A stretch of DNA of 64,000 nt, taken from contig CAVZXA010000007.1 of assembly GCA_963779175.1 (NCBI GenBank), positions 281,086 through 345,085 of the forward strand, written 5' to 3'. Under the pieces are notes generated by a model. The model ran no database searches and had not been told where the DNA came from. It saw nothing but the letters and a program-made list of their open reading frames with translations. Each line of letters opens with the position of its first letter. Within the stretch, counting starts at the first letter, position 1. Shown piece by piece: positions 30,911 to 46,583 of this stretch. Position numbers and translations under genes: made by a program. Source of the stretch: an uncultured Acidobacteriota bacterium. Lineage in GTDB: Bacteria > Acidobacteriota > Vicinamibacteria > Vicinamibacterales > UBA2999.

Positions 30911-31008
30911 GGGCTTCAGTCTACCGCCGGCGGCGAACGCTCGGTCCGGCCCCTATAATCGCGACGTCCGCGGCGATGTGCGCGGACGTGGAGTGTGGAG
31001 GGCGAAGC

Positions 31009-34002
<2,994 letters not shown>

Positions 34003-35696: not shown

Positions 35697-38214
35697 GTGA
35701 TCGGCACGACCATCGGTCCGTATCGAATCCTGCGCGAACTCGGGCAGGGCGGCATGGGCACGGTCGTGCTCGCCGAAGACACGCGCCTGGGCCGTCACGT
35801 CGCCCTCAAGACCGTCTCGGGGGCACAGGCCGGCACCTCCGGCGGCCGCGCGCAACTACTCGACGAAGCTCGCGCCGCTGCCGCGCTCTCGCACCCGGCC
35901 ATCGCCGCCGTGCACGACGTCATCGAACACGACGGCAACATCGCCATCGTCTTCGAGCTGGTCGAAGGCGAAACCCTCGCCGCGCGCCTCGCCAAGGGGC
36001 CGCTCCCCGAAGAACAGGCCGTCGCCATCGCCGTGCAGATCGCCGACGCGCTGGCCGTCGCGCACGGCGCGCGGGTGCTGCACCGGGATCTCAAGCCCTC
36101 GAACATCATGCTGGCGCCCGGCGGCGTCGTGAAGATCCTCGACTTCGGCATCGCGCGCTTCCGGCCGGTCGGGCATCAGGCGCCGGCCGACAGCCACGGC
36201 GACGAGGGCTTCATGGGCACGCCCGGCTACGTCGCGCCCGAACAGTGGACCGGCAAGGCCGTGGACGAACGGGCCGATCTCTACGCGCTCGGGGTGGTGC
36301 TGTTCGAGATGCTGACGGGGAAGCGCCCGTTCCCGGAGCGCGAGCCGTTCACGCTGGCGCTGGCCGCCATCGACCGCATCGCCCGCCGCGTGTCGTCACT
36401 GCGGCCCGGCGTCGCGCCGGCGCTCGACAAGCTGGTGGCGCGGTTGCTGGCCGCCGATCCGGCGCTGCGTCCGCCGCGGGCGCGCGTGGTCGCCGACGAG
36501 TTGCGGCAGTTGCAGACGCCGCCGCTGCCGCCTCCGCCTCCGCCGTGGAAGGGGTGGGCCGCACTGGCCGCGCTGGTGGTGGCCGCAGGCGCCGGCGGGC
36601 TGTGGTGGTTCCTGCGGCCGGTGCGGCTCGACGTCAGCAATCCGGTGATCGCCGTGCTGCCGCTGGCCAACCAGACCGGCGACGCCTCGAACGACTACCT
36701 GGCGGCTGGTGTCGCCGACAGCCTGGTCACGAGCCTGGCGTCGTTTCCGGCCGTGACGACGCTGTCGCGGGCGATGGTCGCCGAAGCGCGTGGCCGCCTG
36801 TCGACGCCGAGTGCCATCGCGCGCGACCTCGGCGCGACGCTGGTCGTCGATGGCGCGGTGCAGCGGCAGAACGACCAGTTGCGCATCTCGCTCAGCCTCA
36901 TCTGGCCGGATGGCCGCATCGCCTGGGCCGAAGCGGCGGAAGGGCCGGCCCGCGACGTGTTCGCGATTCAGGCGCGGCTCGCCAGCGCCCTCGGCAGCGC
37001 GCTCAGCGTGCAGATGTCGGCCGACGACGAGACGCGTCTTGAGACGCCGCCCACCTCCAACGCCAACGCCCTCGATGCGTTCTGGCGCGGCCGCGCGCTG
37101 CTCGAGCGGCGCGACACGCCCGGCAACCTCCAGCTCGCCGAGGTGGCGTTCAAGGAGGCGCTGCGTCTCGATGCCCGCTTCGTCGATGCGCACGCCGCGC
37201 TCGGCGAGACTTACTGGGAGCTCTACAACACGACGCGGGACGCCGCGTTCGTGCCTCAGGCGCAGCGGGCCAGCGCCGCGGCGCTGGCGCTGGCGCCCGA
37301 TGTCGCGGCCGTGCGGCTGGCGCTGGGCATCACGCTCACGAGCAGCGGGCGCAACGCCGAAGCCGTGCAGGAGCTGCAGCGCGCCCTGGCGATGCGGCCC
37401 AACGACGACGAGGCGCGACGCTACCTCGGGAAAGCCCTGGCCGCACTCGGCCGCATCGACGAGGCGGTGGCGGAATGGCGCAAGGCGCTCACCATCCGTC
37501 CCAACAACTGGCAGGCATTGAGCGACATGGGACGGGCGCTGTTCGTGGCGCGCCGACTGCCCGAGGCCGAGGCGGTGTACCGCCAGCTCATCGAGCTGCG
37601 GCCCGACAACGTCATCGGCCACCAGGGACTAGGCACCGTGTTGCAGGCGCTCGACCGCATCCCCGAGGCGCTCGAGTCGTACCGAGCGCGCCACCGCGAT
37701 TACCCCCGCCGGGCAGACCCTGTCGAACATGGGCACGCTCTATTACCAGCGGCGCGAATATGCCCGGGCGGTCGACGCCTACCGCCGGGCGATCGCGCTG
37801 CGGCCGAACTCGGCCCCGACGCACCGCAATCTGGGCGACCTGCTGACGCAGATGGGGCGCCGGGACGAGGCACTGGCGTCGTATCAGCGGGCGCTCGATC
37901 TGGCCGAAGCCGCCCATCAGGTGAACCCGGCCGACGCGCAGAACCTGGCGGAACTGGCGGTCTACGCGGTGAAGACCGGGCGCATCCAGCGTGCCGTGGA
38001 GCAGGCCACCGAAGCCACGCGCCTGACGCCGAACGCCCAGGGGGTCTGGTGGCTCGCCTCGCACGTCCACGCCCTGGCCGGCAACCGCGCGGCGGCGCTC
38101 GAGGCACTGACGCGGGCGCTGGCGCTGGGCCGGTCGAAGGCGGACGCGGCCGCGGCCGAGGAACTGGCCTCGCTGCGCGACGATCCGGCCTTCCGGCGCC
38201 TCATCGCCGGCTGA
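35697..38214 (+). CDS. Membrane Ser/Thr protein kinase with TolB-N-like and TPR domains; frameshift near 37690
   Basis: GQGGMG, VALK, HRDLKPSN, DFG, GTPGYVAPE; TM helix; IAVLPLAN; TPRs continue in ORF 37729..38214. Confidence 0.9.
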
Positions 38215-38297
38215 GGGCGCGAGGCCGTCCGGGGCGTTTCGTCGCCTTCCCGTGGTGTATCGTTATGCCGCCGCCTTGCGGCAAGGAGCCGTTCACC

Positions 38298-38627
38298 ATG
38301 TCCCGACCCCGAGTGCGCTACGCGACGATCTTCGTCTTCCCACCGCCCGCCAAGGGCAAGGCGCCGGTTGTCAGCACCTCGCCCGAACGCCTGACCGTCC
38401 GCGCCGGCGAATCCGTCGAGTGGACCATCGTCAACGCCACCGGCACTCCGGGGCGGCTCTCGATCGGCTGGGAGAAGCGCAATCCGCTCAAAGGCGAATC
38501 CGGCAGCCCGTTCGAGCGCCGCACACGCGACGTCGTCCGCGCGAAGGCCGAGCCGGGCATCTACAAGTACAACGTGCTGCTCGACGGCAAGGTCGTGTTC
38601 GACCCCGAACTCGAGATCATGAGCTAG
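38298..38627 (+). CDS. Small beta-sandwich hypothetical protein
   Basis: AAGGAG SD; MSRPRVRYATIFV...PERLTVRAGESVEW...GIYKYNVLLDGKVVFDPELEIMS. Confidence 0.7.
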   Translation: MSRPRVRYATIFVFPPPAKGKAPVVSTSPERLTVRAGESVEWTIVNATGTPGRLSIGWEKRNPLKGESGSPFERRTRDVVRAKAEPGIYKYNVLLDGKVVFDPELEIMS

Positions 38628-38690
38628 CGCCTGCCGGGCGACCGCTGGGCGATTGACGCCGGTTCCTGATCCCGCTACCCTCATTTTCTG

Positions 38691-39152
38691 ATGTCCCTCG
38701 TGCGTCGGCACCTGCGTCGCGGCGTCACCACGTGGCTCCTGTGCCACGCGCTGACGTTCACGGCGCTCGTGCCGCGTGACTGCTGCGCCGCGCACTCCCA
38801 CGGAACGCATGACGCGGCCGTGCCCGCCGCCGCCGACGGAGAGGCGCCCTGTCACGAGGTGGCCGTGCCCGCCCCGGCCCCCGGCGCCCACTGCGAGATG
38901 GCGGCTGAAGATGGTGCCGCCTGCCCGATGCATGCCTCGCCAGCGTCGCCGCTCTCCGCGGCCGATTGCGCGCTGAGTGGCTCATGCCAGGCGCCGGCCG
39001 CGGCGCTTGCCGCGGTGCTGATGCAGGCCGCGGTGCTGTCGCCCTCCTCGCTCCACACGCCGCACCTGGTCCCCGAGGCGGTGTCGCGGCCGCCCGACGT
39101 CTCCCCGCGATCCCTCGCCAGCCCGCCCGACGCGCCGCCACCGCGCGCCTGA
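38691..39152 (+). CDS. Cys/His-rich leader protein with Pro-rich C-terminus (CutF/CruR/DUF2946-like)
   Basis: Basic-hydrophobic N-terminus; CCAAHSH, PCHE, HCEM, CPMH, CALSGSC; ends PPDAPPPRA directly upstream of a TonB receptor. Confidence 0.7.
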   Translation: MSLVRRHLRRGVTTWLLCHALTFTALVPRDCCAAHSHGTHDAAVPAAADGEAPCHEVAVPAPAPGAHCEMAAEDGAACPMHASPASPLSAADCALSGSCQAPAAALAAVLMQAAVLSPSSLHTPHLVPEAVSRPPDVSPRSLASPPDAPPPRA

Positions 39153-39228
39153 ACCCCGCTCCAGATCCGTTCGTTGCGGAAACGCCCGTCGTGGGCCTCC
39201 GCGTGGAGTGACGTGTTCAGGCGAGGTG
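39139..39228 (+). promoter_or_regulatory. Predicted SD-sequestering RNA helix between leader ORF end and TonB receptor RBS
   Basis: CGCCTGAAC (39146-39154) is the exact reverse complement of GTTCAGGCG (39215-39223); CACC (39139-39142) can pair with GGTG (39225-39228) of SD GAGGTG. Confidence 0.6.
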
Positions 39229-39232
39229 TCCC

Positions 39233-42067
39233 ATGTTCGGATATGCAGGAGCGCTGGCGGCGTGTGCCGTCGCGCTGGTCGTGGCCGTGCCGGTCGCGGC
39301 TCAGGAATCAATCAATCACGCCAGCGTGAGTGGGCGCGTCACTGACGCGCAGGGCGCGGTCGTGCCCGGTGCCACGGTCACGGCCCGGCAGGTCGAAACG
39401 GATGTCTCGGCGTCGGGCGTCACCGACGAGGGCGGCCGCTTCCGGTTCCCGTATCTGCGGGTCGGCACCTACGACCTCAGCGTCCAGCTCGCCGGGTTCG
39501 CCGAGGCCCGCCGCCGCATCGCCCTGTCGGTCGGGGCCGCGTTCGAGATCCCGTTCGTGCTCGCCGTGGAAGGCGTGGCCGCGAGCGTCGATCGTCGCCG
39601 CCGAGGCGCCGGTGCTCGAATCGGCCCGCAGTCAGATCGCGACCACCGTGTCGGTGGCGGAGGTGCAGGCCCTGCCGCTCAACGGCCGCAACTTCCTCGA
39701 CATCGCGCTGCTGGCGCCGGGCGTCGCGCCGCCGAACATCAACAGCACGCAGCTCTTCGCCGAGACCTCCGCCGTGCAGGGCGTCGGGTCTGTCGGTGGG
39801 CAGCCAGCGCAACCTGTCGAACAGCTTCATCGTGGACGGGCTGTCGGCCAACGACGATGCCGCGGGCCTGAGCGGATTGCCGTACGGCGTCGATGCGGTC
39901 GAGCAGTTCCAGGTCGTCAGCTCCGGCGGCCAGGCCGAACTGGGCCGCGCGCTCGGCGGCTACGTGAACGTCGTGACGCGCAGCGGCACCAACCAGCTGC
40001 GCGGCACCGCCTACGGGTTCTTCCGCGACGATGCGCTCAATGCGCCGAACGCGCTGTCGGGCACCACGCTGCCGATGGCGCAGCAGCAGTACGGCGCCAG
40101 CGTCGGCGGCCCGATCCGCCGCGGGCGCACGTTCTACTTCGTGAACGCCGAGCAGCGTCGGCTCGACCAGTCGGGCTTTGCCACCATCAGCGCCGCCAAC
40201 CTGGCCACCGTGAACGCGCGGCTGGCGGCCACCGGCTACCCGGGGCAGGCGATTGCGACCGGCATCTTCGAGACGCCGATCGACAGCGTCCATCTGCTGG
40301 GAAAGATCGACCACGCCTTCACCGGCCGCGACCAGCTCAGCGTGCGCTACAGCCTCTACGACGTCGCCTCAGAGAACTCGCGCGGCGCCGGCGGGCTGAG
40401 TGCGCCGTCGGCGTCGGCCGGGATCGACAACCGCGACCAGGCGGTGTCGGTGAGCAACACGCTGACGCTCGGCGCCCGCACGGTCAACGAGACGCGCGCG
40501 CAGTTCACTTACAGCGACCTGCTGGCGCTGCCGGCCGATCCGTTCGGTCCGGCCGTCAACATCGCCGGCGTGGCGTCGTTCGGGACGTTTCCGTCGAGTC
40601 CGCAGGGCCGCCTGAACACGATGGTCCAGGTGGTGAACACGGTCGCCCAGCAGCGCGGCGCGCATGCGCTGCGCGCCGGCGTCGATGTGATCCACAACGA
40701 CGACACCATCACCTTTCCCCGAGCCGTCCGCGGGTCCTACGCGTTCTCGTCGCTGGCGAACTTCCTGGCCGGCACCTACAACAACGCCGGCTTCACGCAG
40801 ACCTTCGGCGACACCGTGGTGCAGCAGGGCAGCACCAGCCTCGGCCTCTACGCGCAGGACGAGTGGAGCGCCACGCCGCGTCTCACGCTCAACCTCGGCC
40901 TGCGCTACGACCTGCAGCAGCTCGAGACCGTCGACACCGACACCAACAACGTCTCGCCGCGGGCGGGCTTCGCGTGGACGCCGTTCGACTCGCGCGAGCT
41001 GGTCGTGCGCGGCAGCGCCGGCCTCTACTTCGATCGGGTGCCGCTGCGGGCGCTTGCCAACGCGCTGCTGTCGGCCGACAACACCACCGACCTGGCGAAG
41101 CTGCGCCAGCGCAACATCGCGCTCACGCCCGGCCAGGCGGGCGCGCCGGTGTTCCCGGGTATCCTGCCGGCCCCCGTGCCATCGGTGACGCTCTTCACTC
41201 TGACGACGATGCAGCGCGACCTGCAGAACGCCTATTCGCGTCAGGCCAGTCTCGAGGTCGAGCGGCAGATCGGCCGCTTCGGCACGGCCAGCGCCGGCTA
41301 TTCGTATCTGCAGCGGGCGCAACCTGATGATGCAGATCAACCAGAACGTGCCGTCGTGCGTGGCCGCCGGCACCAACAACGGCTGCCGGCCGATTGCCGA
41401 CTACGCCAACAACAACCAGTACCGGTCGGCGGGCGAGCTCGACCTACCACGCGCTGCTGCTGTCGTTTGCGCGGCGGCCCGGCGCGCGTGGGGCTACTAC
41501 CGGGCCAGCTACACGCTGTCGAAGGCCGAGAACAACGTCGGCGAGTTCTTCTTCAGCGGGCCCATCGATCCGTTCGATCTCGACAAGGACTGGAGCCGCG
41601 CCGACAACGATCGCCGGCACACGTTCGTGTTCTCGGCCGGGCTCAACTCGCCGATGACGCCGGCCACGACGGTGTGGCAGCACCTCACGCACGGCTTCCA
41701 GGTGAGCACGCTGCTGCAGGCCTATTCGGCGGCGCCGTTCAACATCACCTCCGGCGCTGACCACCGTGCAGGGCACGGCCGGCCGGCCGATCGTGAACGG
41801 CGAGTTCATCCCGCGCAACTCCGGCGTGGGCGACGAGTTCTTCTCGCTGGGCCTGCGGGCGAGCCGGGCCTTCCGCGTCGCCGACACGGTCACGGTCGAA
41901 GCGCGTGGCCGAGGTCTTCAATCTCACCGAACGCGGTGAACGAAATCGCGCGCAACGCCAACTTCGGCGCCGGCGCCTATCCGACGACGCCGTCGGCGAC
42001 CTACAACCAGGTCACCGCGGTGGGCGATCCGCGCGCCTGGCAACTGGCGCTGCGCGTGCGCTTTTAG
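39233..42067 (+). CDS. TonB-dependent receptor (carboxypeptidase-regulatory N-domain, Oar-like); several frameshifts
   Basis: Signal; SGRVTDAQGAVVPGATV; LPLNGRNFLDIALLAPG; NVVTRSGTN; YAQDEW..LTLNLGLRYD; C-terminal PRAWQLALRVRF. Confidence 0.9.
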
Positions 42068-42080
42068 CGATCGTTGTCTT

Positions 42081-42095
42081 TGGGGTCAGACCCCA
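42081..42095. repeat. REP-like palindrome TGGGGTCAGACCCCA
   Basis: Intergenic, just after the TonB receptor stop. Confidence 0.72.
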
Positions 42096-42128
42096 TGCTG
42101 GGCGGGGCCAGACTTTCAGGAGTGCCGT

Positions 42129-43465
42129 ATGACGGATTTGCGCAAGTGGCAGATAGGACTGACGTCGATGGTCGTGCTGACGTGCGCGATGGCGCCGGCC
42201 GCCAGGCAGGCGCCGACGGGCGTCGACTCCGGCGTCACCCTGGCCGTGGCCGGACGTCACAACGCCGCGCCGTGGGTGGCGTCGTCGGGACGGTTCGTCG
42301 CCGTCACGTGGGGCGCCGGCCTCGACAGCGCGTGGGACATCTACGTGGCGACAAGCGCGGACGAGGGCCGGACCTTCTCCGCGCCGGTGCGCGTCAACGC
42401 CGTGGCCGGCGATGGCCGCGTGAGCGGCGAGATTCCGCCGCGCGTGGCGCTCCATCAGCCGGCGGGCGCCGCCGCAGCCCGAGGTGGTCGTGGCCTGGAA
42501 CGCGAAGGACCAGGGCACCGAGATCAAGATCGCGCGCAGCCGCGACTTCGGCCGGACGTTCGCACCGCCGGCGTCGCTGCAGGCACCAGGCGCCGCCGGC
42601 GACCGCGGCTGGCACGCGCTCACGCTCGACAGTCGCGGCGTCGCGCACGTGGTGTGGCTCGATCACCGCGGCCTCGCCGAAGCATCGGCGCGCGCCGACG
42701 CGAAGGCGGGCGCGGGCGGCCACGGCAGCGGGGATCACGACGGCGTGGCGATGGCCCAGAAGTCGCGGCTGCACTACGCGACGTTCGGCGATCGGGCGGC
42801 GCCCGAGCAGAAGCTCGCCCCGGGCGTGTGTTATTGCTGCAAGACGGCGCTCGTGGCCACGCGCGGCGGCATCCTCGCGGCGTGGCGCCACGTGTACGAC
42901 GGCAACATGCGCGACATGGCGTTTGCGATTCTGGGCACGCCTGGTGCGGCTCGCCAATCCCGCCCGGCTCAGCACCGACGGCTGGGCCATCAACGGGTGT
43001 CCCGACGACGGCCCGGCGCTCGCCGTGGATGCCGGCGATCGTGTGCATGCCATCTGGCCCACGGTGATTCCGGGCGACCAGCCGATCGGCGCGCTTTTCT
43101 ACGCCTCGAAGGCCGGGACGGCGCCCGCGTTCGGCGCCCGCCAGCGGGTGGCCACGCTCGGCGCCCCCAAGCCGTCGCATCCCCAGGTGGCGGTCGATGG
43201 CACCGGCCATCTGTTCGTGGCGTGGGACGAGATCCTGAGCGGCGTCCGCGTCGCGGCGTACGCTGAGGGCACGAGCGGGCCTGAGGGCAGCCTGCGCCTC
43301 GCTGCGCCGACGCGGATCGCGCCCACCGGCCCGACGCAGTATCCGGTGATGGCGCCGCTGGCCCGCGGCGTCGTTGCCGCCTGGGTGAGCGGGCCCCAGG
43401 GCACGGCGGTGATTCGCGTGCGACACCTGGTCGCAGGCAACGCGGCCGCGACGGCCGCACGATAG
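42129..43465 (+). CDS. Exported BNR/sialidase-like protein with Cys motifs; frameshifts near 42478 and 42945
   Basis: SADEGRTFS and SRDFGRTF Asp-boxes; VWLDHR; GVCYCCKT; WRHVY..NMRD; GWAINGCPDDGP. Confidence 0.8.
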
Positions 43466-43474
43466 GAGACAGCC

Positions 43475-44158
43475 ATGACACGACTCCACATTGCAGGTGC
43501 ACTGCTCTTCGCCGCCGGCCTCCTCGCCGGCCCCGCCCGAGCGCAGGAACACGCGGGCCAGAAGCCAGCGGCCATGGGCCACATGGACCACAAGTTCGAC
43601 GACCCCGAACGCTACGCGAAGTCGTTCGACGATCCGGCGCGTGACGCCTGGCAGATGCCGGCGCGCGTCATCGAGGCGCTGGCACTGAAGCCCGGGCAGA
43701 CGGTGGCGGACATCGGCGCCGGTACCGGCTACTTCAGCGTGCGCCTGGCGCGGGCCGCGGCGGCGCCGAAGGTCTTCGCGGTGGATCTCGAGCCGAAGAT
43801 GGTCGAGCACCTCACGAAGCGGGCGGCAGCCGAAGGCCTGAAGAACATCACCGCCGTGCAGGCCTCGGCGGCCAGCCCCAACCTGCCGGAGCCGGTCGAT
43901 GTCGTGCTCGTCATCGACACCTATCACCACATCGCCGACCGGCCGGCCTATTTCGCGGCCCTGAAGTCGAAGCTCACGCCCGGCGGACGGCTCGCCATCG
44001 TGGACTTCAGGAAGGGCGGTGGCGGCGACGGCCCGCCCGACGCGTTCCGGTTCACGCCTGAACAGATCAGCGGCGAATTGGCGCAGGCGGGATATGTGCT
44101 CGACCGCTCGCACGACTTCCTGCCGCGCCAGCACTATCTCGTCTATCGCACCAAGTAA
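43475..44158 (+). CDS. Class I SAM-dependent methyltransferase with signal peptide
   Basis: Signal ending ARA-QEH; RDAWQMP; VADIGAGTGYF; DTYHH; GGRLAIVDF. Confidence 0.88.
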   Translation: MTRLHIAGALLFAAGLLAGPARAQEHAGQKPAAMGHMDHKFDDPERYAKSFDDPARDAWQMPARVIEALALKPGQTVADIGAGTGYFSVRLARAAAAPKVFAVDLEPKMVEHLTKRAAAEGLKNITAVQASAASPNLPEPVDVVLVIDTYHHIADRPAYFAALKSKLTPGGRLAIVDFRKGGGGDGPPDAFRFTPEQISGELAQAGYVLDRSHDFLPRQHYLVYRTK

Positions 44159-44173
44159 GCGCCCGGAGGCTTC

Positions 44174-45050
44174 ATGACCCGTTCGTCGCTCGCGCTCCTG
44201 TTCTCTCCTGGCTCCTGGCCGCGCCGGCCGCCGCGCAGGCGCCCACAGCCGGTGACGATCCGCTTTGCGATGACCGCCGGGGCGATCGCCGCGTGACCTG
44301 CGCCTCGAGTGTCACCGGCGTGGGCACGACGAAGTCCGACGGTCAGCATCATCGACGCCCGCCTGTACGTGTCGCGGGTGCGGCTCGTCAAGGCCGACGG
44401 CGGCGAAGTGCCGGTCACGCTGACGCAGGACGGCCTGTGGCAGCTCGACGACGTGGCGCTGCTCGACTTCGAGAATGCCACGGGCAGCTTGCGCCAACGG
44501 CACCGAGCAGACCCGCGATGTCATCGAGGGCACGGCGCCGGCCGGGGACTACACCGGCGTGCGCTTCGAGGTCGGCCTGCCGTTCGAGAAGAACCACCGC
44601 GAGTCAGACGCTGCAGCCGTCGCCGCTCAACCTGAGCCGGCTGTTCTGGAGCTGGAACGCCGGCTACAAGTTCATGCGGCTCGACATCAAGCAGCACCGG
44701 GCAGCCGCGCGGCTGGCTGGTGCACCTGGGCAGCACCGCCTGCACGCCCGACCGGCAGCCCGCTCGATCGGTGCCGGTGTCGTGCGCGAACCGCAACGTG
44801 GTCGACGGTGGATCTGCCCGCGTTCTCGGCGACGCGCGACGTGGTCGAACTCGACTTGCCTCGCGCTCTTCGCGGCGAGCAACGTCGACACCAACACCGA
44901 CAAGACCGCGCTCGGCTGCATGTCGGGCCGGCAGCGACCCCGAGTGCGCACGGCCTGTTCGGGCAGCTCGGGCTGGCGCATCGCCGACAAGGCCGGCCGG
45001 TCCGCAGCAGGTCTTCCGCGTGAAGGCCGGCCGCCACGCTGGCGCGCTAG
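44174..45050 (+). CDS. mbnP: MbnP-family copper-binding protein; multiple frameshifts
   Basis: Pieced across frames: [59 protein letters not shown] (WxW), HLGSTAC, CANRN, GCMSG..DPEC. Confidence 0.82.
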
Positions 45051-45060
45051 GAGTCCGATC

Positions 45061-46583
<1,523 letters not shown>

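Follow-up and report, generated by a model that had tools for sequence, protein, structure and literature searches.

A conserved open reading frame ahead of a TonB receptor operon in Acidobacteriota: a candidate metal-gated leader peptide with a possible anti-Shine-Dalgarno helix in its last codons

What is a small open reading frame (ORF) rich in cysteine, histidine and methionine doing directly ahead of a TonB-dependent receptor gene in an uncultured member of the Acidobacteriota? The question is raised by a 64,000-nucleotide (nt) stretch of contig CAVZXA010000007.1 (assembly GCA_963779175.1; GTDB lineage Vicinamibacteria, Vicinamibacterales, UBA2999; contig positions 281,086 to 345,085 of the forward strand), hereafter the window, in which an ORF of 153 amino acids (aa) ends in PPDAPPPRA a short distance before the receptor start. 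A sequence-only reading of the window had proposed that this ORF may be an acidobacterial version of the leaders CruR and CutF, in which a ribosome paused near the stop codon opens an mRNA helix that covers the Shine-Dalgarno (SD) sequence of the receptor. Its summary of CruR and CutF as copper-responsive, proline-rich leaders agrees with the literature in those parts of the sources that are drawn on here. With moderate confidence, and from sequence comparison, we propose that the leader would act as a cis-acting regulatory peptide and not mainly as a structural protein, with a metal-gated pause at D-A-P-P-P-R-A controlling the operon. The two features on which this proposal turns are the following.

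38691 to 39152, plus strand: leader ORF (P0001), 153 aa, the first member encountered here of an unannotated family
39123 to 39152, plus strand: codons of PPDAPPPRA and the stop, the presumed ribosome-arrest motif, with a conserved end, fixed spacing and an excess of rare Pro codons

Direct reading and translation give a frame from ATG at 38691 to TGA at 39150-39152, whose product begins with MSLVRRHLRRGVTTWLLCHALTFTALV (Arg-rich, then hydrophobic), ends in PPDAPPPRA, and carries the Cys/His/Met clusters DCC, PCHE, HCEM, CPMH and C-x5-C, just as the ORF had been described from the letters of the window. A six-frame search of 41 related genomes recovered full-length orthologues (84-42% identity) in one member of a second genus and, within the genus of the window, in 13 of 18 further genomes. 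Fifteen leader orthologues can be aligned end to end, and the profile built from them finds at least 593 homologues at our threshold of E<=0.01. None of the 120 homologues listed carries a Pfam domain, and all 120 are hypothetical or unnamed. Twenty-five loci from the genome collection are labeled Acidobacteriota, mostly Vicinamibacterales, with one Bifidobacteriaceae and one Solibacteraceae label as exceptions. In an even sample of the phylum (301 genomes, 185 genera) the profile matched six genomes, all in the window's own order, and it had no match among the remaining genomes of that sample. By these comparisons the leader ORF is a real, conserved gene.

Named families give little purchase on it. 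P0001 matches no family in Pfam (E<=1) and none in NCBIfam; Pfam searches of 99 leader-family members returned nothing relevant, the matches to TEDC1 (6 of 99) and HMBD (3 of 99) all being weak; and Rfam on 38300-39600 returned a single sub-threshold match to a small nucleolar RNA, taken as noise. The nearest clusters in a protein atlas are unnamed acidobacterial ones. The nearest named atlas clusters, CzcI (0.93) and DUF6769, were considered as relatives and set aside, matches of this type being flagged as often due to chance; CzcI, which is grouped with CutF-like proteins in the portion of PMC9973294 drawn on here, was kept as a lead only.

The strongest regularities of the family lie at its C-terminus. 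The pattern x-[A/S/L/N/P]-P-P-P-[R/K]-x-stop closes 119 of the 120 listed homologues, the single homologue that departs from PPP[RK]x-stop extending past the usual end, and the last seven residues read D[AS]PPPR[LAS] and variants. Neither RAPP nor RGPP occurs in any of these 120 proteins, D/A occupying the position of the R. The distance from the metal-type motif is equally constrained: 48 residues lie between the second Cys of C-x5-C and the residue preceding PPP in 119 of 119 members, which places the first Pro a fixed 49 residues after that Cys. Protein lengths range from 116 to 182 aa through insertions and deletions in the N-terminal half, and the linker varies in sequence while its length stays fixed. 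Codon choice is also unusual at this point. Across 27 non-redundant loci CCA and CCT make up 39 of the 81 PPP codons (48%). The background is 9% of the 928 Pro codons of the downstream genes and 12% of 397 elsewhere in the leaders, so that rare Pro codons are about five-fold in excess at exactly these three positions; where the final codon encodes Leu it is CTC in 12 of 13 loci, against 39% in the background. The conserved end, the fixed ruler and the rare Pro codons suggest that the C-terminus behaves as an arrest motif. PPD, APP and PPP are among the strongest stalling triplets that depend on elongation factor P.

What, then, might such an arrest respond to? Two further segments of the leader bear on this question.

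38694 to 38768, plus strand: Arg-rich start and hydrophobic helix, residues 2-26 (a helix in the AlphaFold2 model, pLDDT about 95)
38778 to 38987, plus strand: Cys/His/Met cluster, residues 30-99, with DCCAAH, PCHE, HCEM, CPMH and C-x5-C

Residues W15, L16 and C18 of the first segment are invariant across the 15 orthologues, and residues 2-26 may form either a signal peptide or an N-in membrane anchor. In the second, C-x5-C corresponds to residues 93-99 (nt 38967-38987). Among 121 leader-family members CPMH is found in 120, C-x5-C in 119, DCC in 115, PCH in 66 and HC.M in 54, while CxxC occurs in only five. A weak match to the heavy-metal-binding domain PF19335, to which CPMH is vaguely similar, appears in three of 99 members (best E 0.12). 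From these motifs residues 30-99 are presumed to be the metal-binding part of the leader. Copper is the most likely ligand, judging from the operon context and from Cys/His/Met chemistry. An AlphaFold2 model made with a 99-sequence alignment has a mean predicted local distance difference test score (pLDDT) of 65.5 and a predicted template modelling score of 0.32; it is confident only in the helix of residues 2-26, with pLDDT of 50-70 beyond residue 30 and no globular fold, and the leader is thus predicted to be mostly unstructured behind its N-terminal helix.

These same features raise a rival explanation, in which the product is an ordinary exported or anchored metal-binding protein, such as a chaperone or a partner of the receptor, that acts in trans; its Pro-rich end would then be a feature of the protein, and the mRNA helix would be plain translational coupling, opened by any ribosome that finishes the ORF. 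The export-type N-terminal helix and the five conserved Cys/His/Met motifs suit this explanation, as do the weak likeness of CPMH to a heavy-metal-binding domain in 3 of 99 members and the CzcI cluster as nearest named neighbor (0.93, with the chance flag noted above), and pairing between an ORF end and the next SD is a common coupling device according to the part of PMC12548453 drawn on here. A protein acting in trans does not, however, readily account for a motif whose distance from the stop is exactly two residues in 119 of the 120 homologues listed, for a linker that is variable in sequence and invariant in length, or for a five-fold excess of rare Pro codons at precisely the three PPP codons. 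The fixed end, the ruler and the rare codons match arrest leaders and are hard to explain by the function of a mature protein; the model's lack of a globular fold (pLDDT 50-70 beyond residue 30) and an mRNA that is probably leaderless also speak against it, and we consider this explanation a serious but less likely alternative.

If the leader is a cis-acting arrest peptide, its last codons should matter for what follows, and the helix proposed for the window would join them to the receptor start.

39139 to 39154, plus strand: 5' helix arm, consisting of CACC, a 3-nt bulge and CGCCTGAAC, overlapping the last four sense codons and the stop
39215 to 39235, plus strand: 3' helix arm, GTTCAGGCG followed by A and GGTG, with the SD GAGGTG at 39223-39228 and the receptor ATG at 39233
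39112 to 39119, plus strand: CCCTCGCC, an alternative partner of the SD flank in the codons for S-L-A, complementary to GGCGAGG and lying behind a ribosome stalled at PPP
39157 to 39210, plus strand: G+C-rich stem-loop in the spacer, with no T-run after it (window z = -1.46)

The segment CGCCTGAAC (39146-39154), which overlaps the last two codons and TGA, is the exact reverse complement of GTTCAGGCG (39215-39223), and CACC (39139-39142) is able to pair with the GGTG (39225-39228) of the SD, which stands 5 nt before the ATG. The complementarity and its extension over the SD had both been pointed out in the sequence-only reading, and the window carries them at the positions given there; the folding check that it suggested returns, as the minimum-free-energy structure of 39120-39260, exactly the proposed helix.

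The comparison of orthologous loci covers the same 27 non-redundant loci, with 24 of them in the recoding test and 24 leaders, aligned with MAFFT, in the RNAalifold analysis. The spacer between leader and downstream gene measures 69-101 nt in 24 of the 27 loci and 151-240 nt in the other three; it folds better than its shuffles (z<0) in 25 of 27 loci and with z<-2 in 12 of 27 (mean z -2.16), and TCAGGCGAGGT recurs before the receptor start in nine loci. In 21 of the 27 the ORF end is the predicted partner of the SD (P>=0.4). The probability that the SD pairs with the last 14 codons averages 0.73 for the native sequences and 0.43 after synonymous recoding with local codon usage, the native value lying above the recoded mean in 22 of 24 loci. 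Moreover, duplexes between the ORF end (-30 to +4 around the stop) and the SD window of the same locus average -20.97 kcal/mol, compared with -17.94 for non-cognate combinations, and this advantage of -3.0 kcal/mol was reached by none of 20,000 permutations. Fourteen control windows from the same loci, six elsewhere in the leader (including the adjacent 34 nt) and eight in the downstream gene, gave differences of -0.56 to +1.01 with a smallest p of 0.12. As an example of the fit, the ORF of locus L016 ends in CGA ATC TGA and its SD is flanked by GATTGAGG instead of CAGGCGAGG, as read from the sequence. In three loci (L023, L024 and L034) the predicted partner of the SD lies further upstream, before the final 27 nt of the ORF; by our reading of the predicted folds, it may be the S-L-A segment.

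The spacers also have features of their own. The three enlarged ones (L031, L033 and L035) contain tandem palindromic repeats with units that include GTAGGGCGGAGCTTCAGCTCCGCC and GGCTCTGAAGAGCC, and these loci keep the SD flank GTTCAGGCGAGGTG right before the start codon. In most loci the stop is followed by a C-rich, G-poor tract, CCTCGCC, CCCTTCGCC or CCCCGCTCC (39153-39175 in the window), which is able to pair with the SD flank GGCGAGG or, in the first hairpin of the spacer, with a segment resembling GGTGAAGG, and these alternative pairings would allow attenuator-type structures.

A number of results weigh against the proposal of a metal-gated leader with an anti-SD helix, and we set them out together. 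The window fold has a z of -1.48, with 15 of 200 shuffles folding as well; the SD window is bound at least as well by 8.7% of 173 control windows of 40 nt from the same locus; and the SD of the window is sequestered equally by 33% of the synonymous variants made of the last 14 codons. The helix in this window alone is not above chance for G+C-rich DNA, and its support comes only from comparing orthologous loci. In that comparison the rank of the cognate duplex among local controls is modest (median 0.147, and at or below 0.05 in 8 of 27 loci), and RNAalifold finds zero consensus pairs in the 24 aligned leaders. The pairing register shifts between lineages, which makes column-wise covariation unscorable; what the loci show is a locus-specific fit between cognate ORF end and SD. 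The loci are related, so that permutation p-values overstate their independence; we still give the duplex result weight, since the null control windows share the same relatedness. The release of the SD by a stalled ribosome, central to the sequence-only reading, is not shown by equilibrium folding, where masking the ribosome footprint at PPP or at the stop lowers mean SD pairing only from 0.85 to 0.72 and 0.71, respectively, and in the window raises it from 0.69 to 0.82; the SD stays paired under the mask because other C-rich segments, for example CCCTCGCC, can replace the masked arm. The five metal-type motifs exceed what a sensor would appear to need and would also suit a mature metal-binding protein. 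PF11162, the profile with which we looked for membership in DUF2946, does not match P0001 at E<=1 or any of 99 leader-family members at E<=10, and a profile-profile comparison (hhalign) of these 99 members with 48 acidobacterial DUF2946-like leaders gave a probability of 12.5% over 23 columns, confined to the N-terminal helix. The receptor and three other genes of the operon are out of frame in this assembly. Finally, arrest, metal binding and regulation by the leader are all things that we infer.

Could the complementarity be a by-product, given that CCN proline codons are inherently complementary to GGAGG-type SD sequences, so that the helix would have no function? The chance-level helix of the window, the missing RNAalifold consensus and the three loci L023, L024 and L034, in which the SD pairs upstream of the last 27 nt and not with the ORF end, are what such a by-product would lead one to expect. 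It leaves unexplained that the fit is locus-specific and vanishes in all 14 control windows, the adjacent 34 nt of the ORF among them, that pairing drops in 22 of 24 loci when the codons are changed synonymously, and that the unusual ORF end CGA ATC TGA of L016 is matched by the flank GATTGAGG in place of CAGGCGAGG. We therefore regard a by-product as quite improbable.

The masking result bears more directly on how an arrest would be read out. In a second kind of arrest leader the output would be transcriptional, as in CruR: a paused ribosome would keep Rho from loading on the C-rich ORF end and the first part of the spacer, Rho would terminate before the receptor gene once the pause is released, and anti-SD pairing would be secondary. 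CruR, the only characterized leader before a TonB receptor, works through Rho in the account given by the sections of PMC9426467 drawn on here; in the listed loci the final 45 nt of the ORF, together with the 15-20 nt that follow the stop, are rich in C and poor in G; a promoter and terminator scan found no intrinsic, terminator-like site after the leader; and the SD remains paired in the model when the footprint is masked. Against this stand a spacer that is short (69-101 nt in 24 of 27 loci, compared with 162 nt in CruR) and strongly structured, and a locus-specific match of ORF end and SD, with a codon choice that favors it, for which Rho offers no explanation. A transcriptional output of this kind seems to us a serious but less likely alternative, and unmasking of the SD, of the CutF and SecM type, the most likely one.

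The metal-gated leader that we favor would then operate as follows. The leader would be translated from a leaderless or nearly leaderless mRNA, its N-terminal helix directing it to the membrane. When the ribosome arrives at D-A-P-P-P-R-A, the Cys/His/Met cluster would already lie entirely outside it, C-x5-C being held a fixed 49 residues behind the first Pro, and the polyproline end would slow or arrest elongation. With Pro150 (39138-39140) in the P site, the ribosome covers the mRNA roughly to 39150-39153, that is, over the 5' helix arm, and C99 is about 51 residues from the peptidyl-transferase centre; C99 may then lie just outside the exit tunnel, or beyond the translocon if the chain is exported. 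Binding or folding there could pull on the arrested chain, and folding near the tunnel exit can release an arrest. The occupancy of the emerged domain by a metal, most likely copper, would set the length of the pause, and a ribosome standing on the last codons and the stop would be standing on the partner of the receptor's SD flank. A long pause would keep the helix open and allow the receptor to be translated, and a quick run-through would let the helix re-form and switch the receptor off; the BNR-like, MbnP and MbnH genes that come later in the operon are assumed to be affected too. The polarity would most likely be that of CruR, with a pause when copper is lacking and release when it is present, as expected for an uptake-type operon.

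How the leader is transcribed and first translated can be judged from the sequence just ahead of it.

38653 to 38681, plus strand: promoter-like TTGACG (38653-38658), a 17-nt spacer and TACCCT (38676-38681), 9 nt before the leader ATG

A TTGAC-type -35 element, a spacer of 17-18 nt and a TAnnnT element ending 7-12 nt before the ATG are found in 18 of the 26 loci with an assigned start. A generic scan for sigma-70 promoters and terminators found nothing, and this -35/-10 pattern was missed by it. No SD precedes the leader ATG here, and usually none does in orthologous loci; from the promoter box 9 nt before the ATG and the lack of an SD, the leader mRNA is probably leaderless or nearly so. Just upstream (35697-38627, plus strand) lies the gene for a Ser/Thr protein kinase of 976 aa, with tetratricopeptide repeats, an unassigned C-terminal domain and the end ...PELEIMS, and at least seven other loci have the same gene end ahead of the leader. 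In L028 and L029, where the leader is of a short form, its ATG stands only 5 nt after the kinase stop, without the promoter pattern.

Is the operon behind the leader intact? In this assembly single extra bases near 39590, 39786 and 41312 break the receptor gene into three frames, and there are smaller local shifts besides. The SD GAGGTG and the ATG at 39233 that had been read in the window are present, and the gene does not form one open frame there. The BNR-like, MbnP-like and MbnH-like genes are frame-shifted as well, and their orthologues have intact frames; at least seven frame changes fall within about 7.4 kb (39233-46571), while two long upstream genes (30976-34002 and 35697-38627) are intact. 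Contigs of related strains from four public DNA runs lack extra bases at or near 39785/39789, 41314, 41435, 41482, 41756, 42475 and 46149. Near-identical contigs show one difference over 39016-39308 and none over 38950-39103 and 39171-39338, and this coverage independently confirms the leader end, the spacer and the receptor start. The source genome assembly consists of 10 contigs with 84% completeness. The frame breaks are probably assembly errors, the alternative being a real decay (pseudogenisation) of this copy.

In the window the leader is followed, in order, by the receptor, a BNR-like gene, an S-adenosylmethionine (SAM)-dependent methyltransferase gene, an MbnP-like gene, an MbnH-like gene and a CcmH-like segment.

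39233 to 42067, plus strand: TonB-dependent receptor (CarboxypepD_reg and OMP_b-brl_4), an intact 941 aa in relatives and in three frames here
42075 to 43465, plus strand: secreted protein of about 455 aa with Asp-box-like (BNR-like) motifs, named from a reading of its sequence; two frame changes
43475 to 44158, plus strand: SAM-dependent methyltransferase, 227 aa
44174 to 45047, plus strand: MbnP-family copper-binding protein (PF20243), with a frame change and 44% identity to the protein of locus L050
45068 to 46571, plus strand: MbnH-family di-haem peroxidase, with a frame change near 46150; a CcmH-like segment follows up to 47095

The MbnP and MbnH proteins of L050 score 274 bits on TIGR04052 (cut-off 140) and 501.6 bits on TIGR04039 (cut-off 362.85), and CopD is also encoded in the operon of a relative (L049). 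With the TonB receptor, MbnP and MbnH nearby, and CopD in the operon of the relative, the leader stands in a copper-related context, and the operon is a probable copper-regulated uptake unit. The BNR-like protein has no match in Pfam or NCBIfam; its motif reads DIYVATSxDxGxTF, and further copies are found in L048 (8042-9409, minus strand) and in L050 (about 540-1906). The methyltransferase gene follows the BNR-like gene in all three operons examined, those of the window, L048 and L050. Across the 27 loci the gene after the leader encodes a TonB receptor in 22 and the BNR-like protein in five, and the five leaders that precede the BNR-like gene are of a shorter form without the segment of PCHE and HCEM. 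Some genomes carry at least two copies of the leader family, among them G016 (on C3 and C12) and G009 (6 matches), and such genomes may combine the long form, followed by a receptor gene, with the short form that precedes a BNR-like gene.

Is the leader, then, an acidobacterial version of CruR and CutF? The C-terminal end, the spacing, the Pro codons, the N-terminal helix, the operon and the co-variation of the helix arms speak for such a version, and membership in DUF2946 does not. A six-frame scan of the 41 genomes with PF11162 had no match at the leader loci and none over the cut-off anywhere; it gave sub-threshold matches elsewhere, five of which are genuine RAPP, RSPP or RGPP leaders of a second, classical family. 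The 48 leaders used in the profile-profile comparison were chosen as HCxxC...R[ASG]PP proteins, and five of the 53 such leaders found carry PF11162. Membership in DUF2946 is not supported by PF11162, by the profile-profile comparison or by the C-x5-C motif, which differs from the CXXC or CxxxC of that family. By sequence, the leader appears to be functionally like CruR and CutF without being a demonstrable member of their family, and it belongs to no described family; we found no description of it in the literature on DUF2946, acidobacterial arrest peptides, CruR and CutF, whose supplementary taxon lists might hold it.

The classical family occurs in the same order and genus. Its members are 93-127 aa long, with an N-terminal helix, HCxxC[HQC] and R[A/S/G]PP followed by 1-3 residues, and they precede TonB receptors of the CarboxypepD_reg type or a coiled-coil, porin-like outer-membrane protein (L017-L021 in G034, G030, G033, G012 and G010; P0125-P0177). 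Two separate leader families thus appear to coexist in this lineage. The receptors behind two of the classical leaders (L018 and L019) are 28-30% identical to the receptor of the window over about 235 residues, and at this low identity synteny is no argument for common descent of the two leader families. We tentatively entertain, as a possibility that is more doubtful than the regulatory role itself, that nascent-chain metal sensing was here invented independently, or has diverged beyond recognition, with the anti-SD written into the arrest codons. Such a system would bring together a leader ORF on a leaderless mRNA, an arrest site of polyproline, a strict ruler of 49 residues and a Cys/His/Met domain with several metal sites.

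If the anti-SD does lie in the arrest codons, one short mRNA stretch would encode both the pause and the switch. If independent invention is true, control of metal uptake by a metal-gated arrest peptide would have evolved more than once and would be far commoner than searches for DUF2946 or RAPP show, and similar leaders would be expected before TonB receptors in other poorly studied phyla. Copper control by nascent leader peptides has been described only since 2022, for mainly proteobacterial DUF2946 proteins; the leader family, with at least 593 sequence clusters of which none is annotated, would extend it, with a different set of motifs, to the abundant Acidobacteria of soils and sediments. 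It would also offer a natural comparison for what is essential in such leaders, namely the length of the ruler and the kind of arrest motif, for how the output is wired (SD pairing or Rho), and for polarity, in which copper either releases or induces the pause. The analysis also points to a probable copper-regulated uptake operon, made up of the receptor, BNR-like, methyltransferase, MbnP and MbnH genes, in rarely cultured organisms. Leaders of this kind escape searches built on PF11162 or RAPP, and a usable search rule would look ahead of TonB receptors for ORFs with a polyproline close to the C-terminus and a Cys motif at a fixed distance from it.

Among known systems the closest in arrangement is CruR (Bp2923) of Bordetella pertussis, which has a CXXC motif, an end of RAPP plus three residues, a 45-residue spacing kept within 1-2 residues, an export signal and an output through Rho (PMC9426467, in the sections drawn on here). 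In both systems a small first ORF is followed by a TonB-dependent transporter gene, a Cys metal motif stands at a conserved distance from a near-terminal Pro motif (45 residues in CruR, 49 here), an N-terminal segment, in the leader of the window of possible export type, opens a protein that is predicted to be poorly structured, and genes of the MbnPH type occur in the operons. The same paper (section 10, in the text drawn on here) reports DUF2946 leaders before TonB receptors, MbnPH and copper chaperones, and names Proteobacteria and a few Planctomycetes, Firmicutes and Deinococcus as their taxa, Acidobacteria not being named in that text. The acidobacterial leader differs from CruR in having C-x5-C and four further Cys/His/Met motifs in place of CXXC, in ending in D[AS]PPP[RK]x and not in RAPP plus three residues, in a spacer of about 77 nt compared with 162 nt, and in sequence evidence that points to SD pairing, whereas CruR acts through Rho.

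CutF of Rhodobacter capsulatus (cutFOG) belongs to DUF2946 and has a signal sequence, CxxxC and a PPP repeat, and copper-induced stalling has been proposed to melt a stem-loop that shields the SD (bioRxiv 10.1101/2025.02.05.636593; PMC9973294; both in the portions drawn on here). It shares with the leader of the window a near-C-terminal polyproline, a Cys motif and a proposed mRNA helix over the SD of the next gene. The CutF protein, like that of CruR, is reported to be undetectable or quickly degraded. Its target, however, is a detoxifying multicopper oxidase that is induced by copper, whereas the operon here is of the uptake type and the opposite polarity is expected; and its anti-SD lies in a stem-loop of the spacer, unlike the one proposed here, which lies in the leader's own last codons.

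Upstream ORFs with RAPP or RGPP have been surveyed before TonB-receptor and copper genes in many Gram-negative phyla, and the arrest of CruR has been demonstrated cell-free, the P and A sites being occupied by the Pro codon pair of RAPP (Fujiwara et al., EMBO J 2025, PMC12992588, in the part drawn on here). The surveyed proteins are small exported proteins with an arrest motif near the C-terminus, encoded before TonB-receptor or copper genes, and in this they resemble the acidobacterial leaders with their putative export segment and presumed arrest motif, but the family described here has neither RAPP nor RGPP and hence falls outside the survey's definition. In SecM-secA, VemP and MifM, arrest on the leader opens a helix that hides the next SD (bioRxiv 10.1101/2025.02.05.636593, as excerpted here), and an exported leader whose C-terminal arrest unmasks the SD of the next gene is likewise what we propose for the window; these leaders sense secretion activity and not metal, use other arrest motifs and are unrelated to it in sequence.

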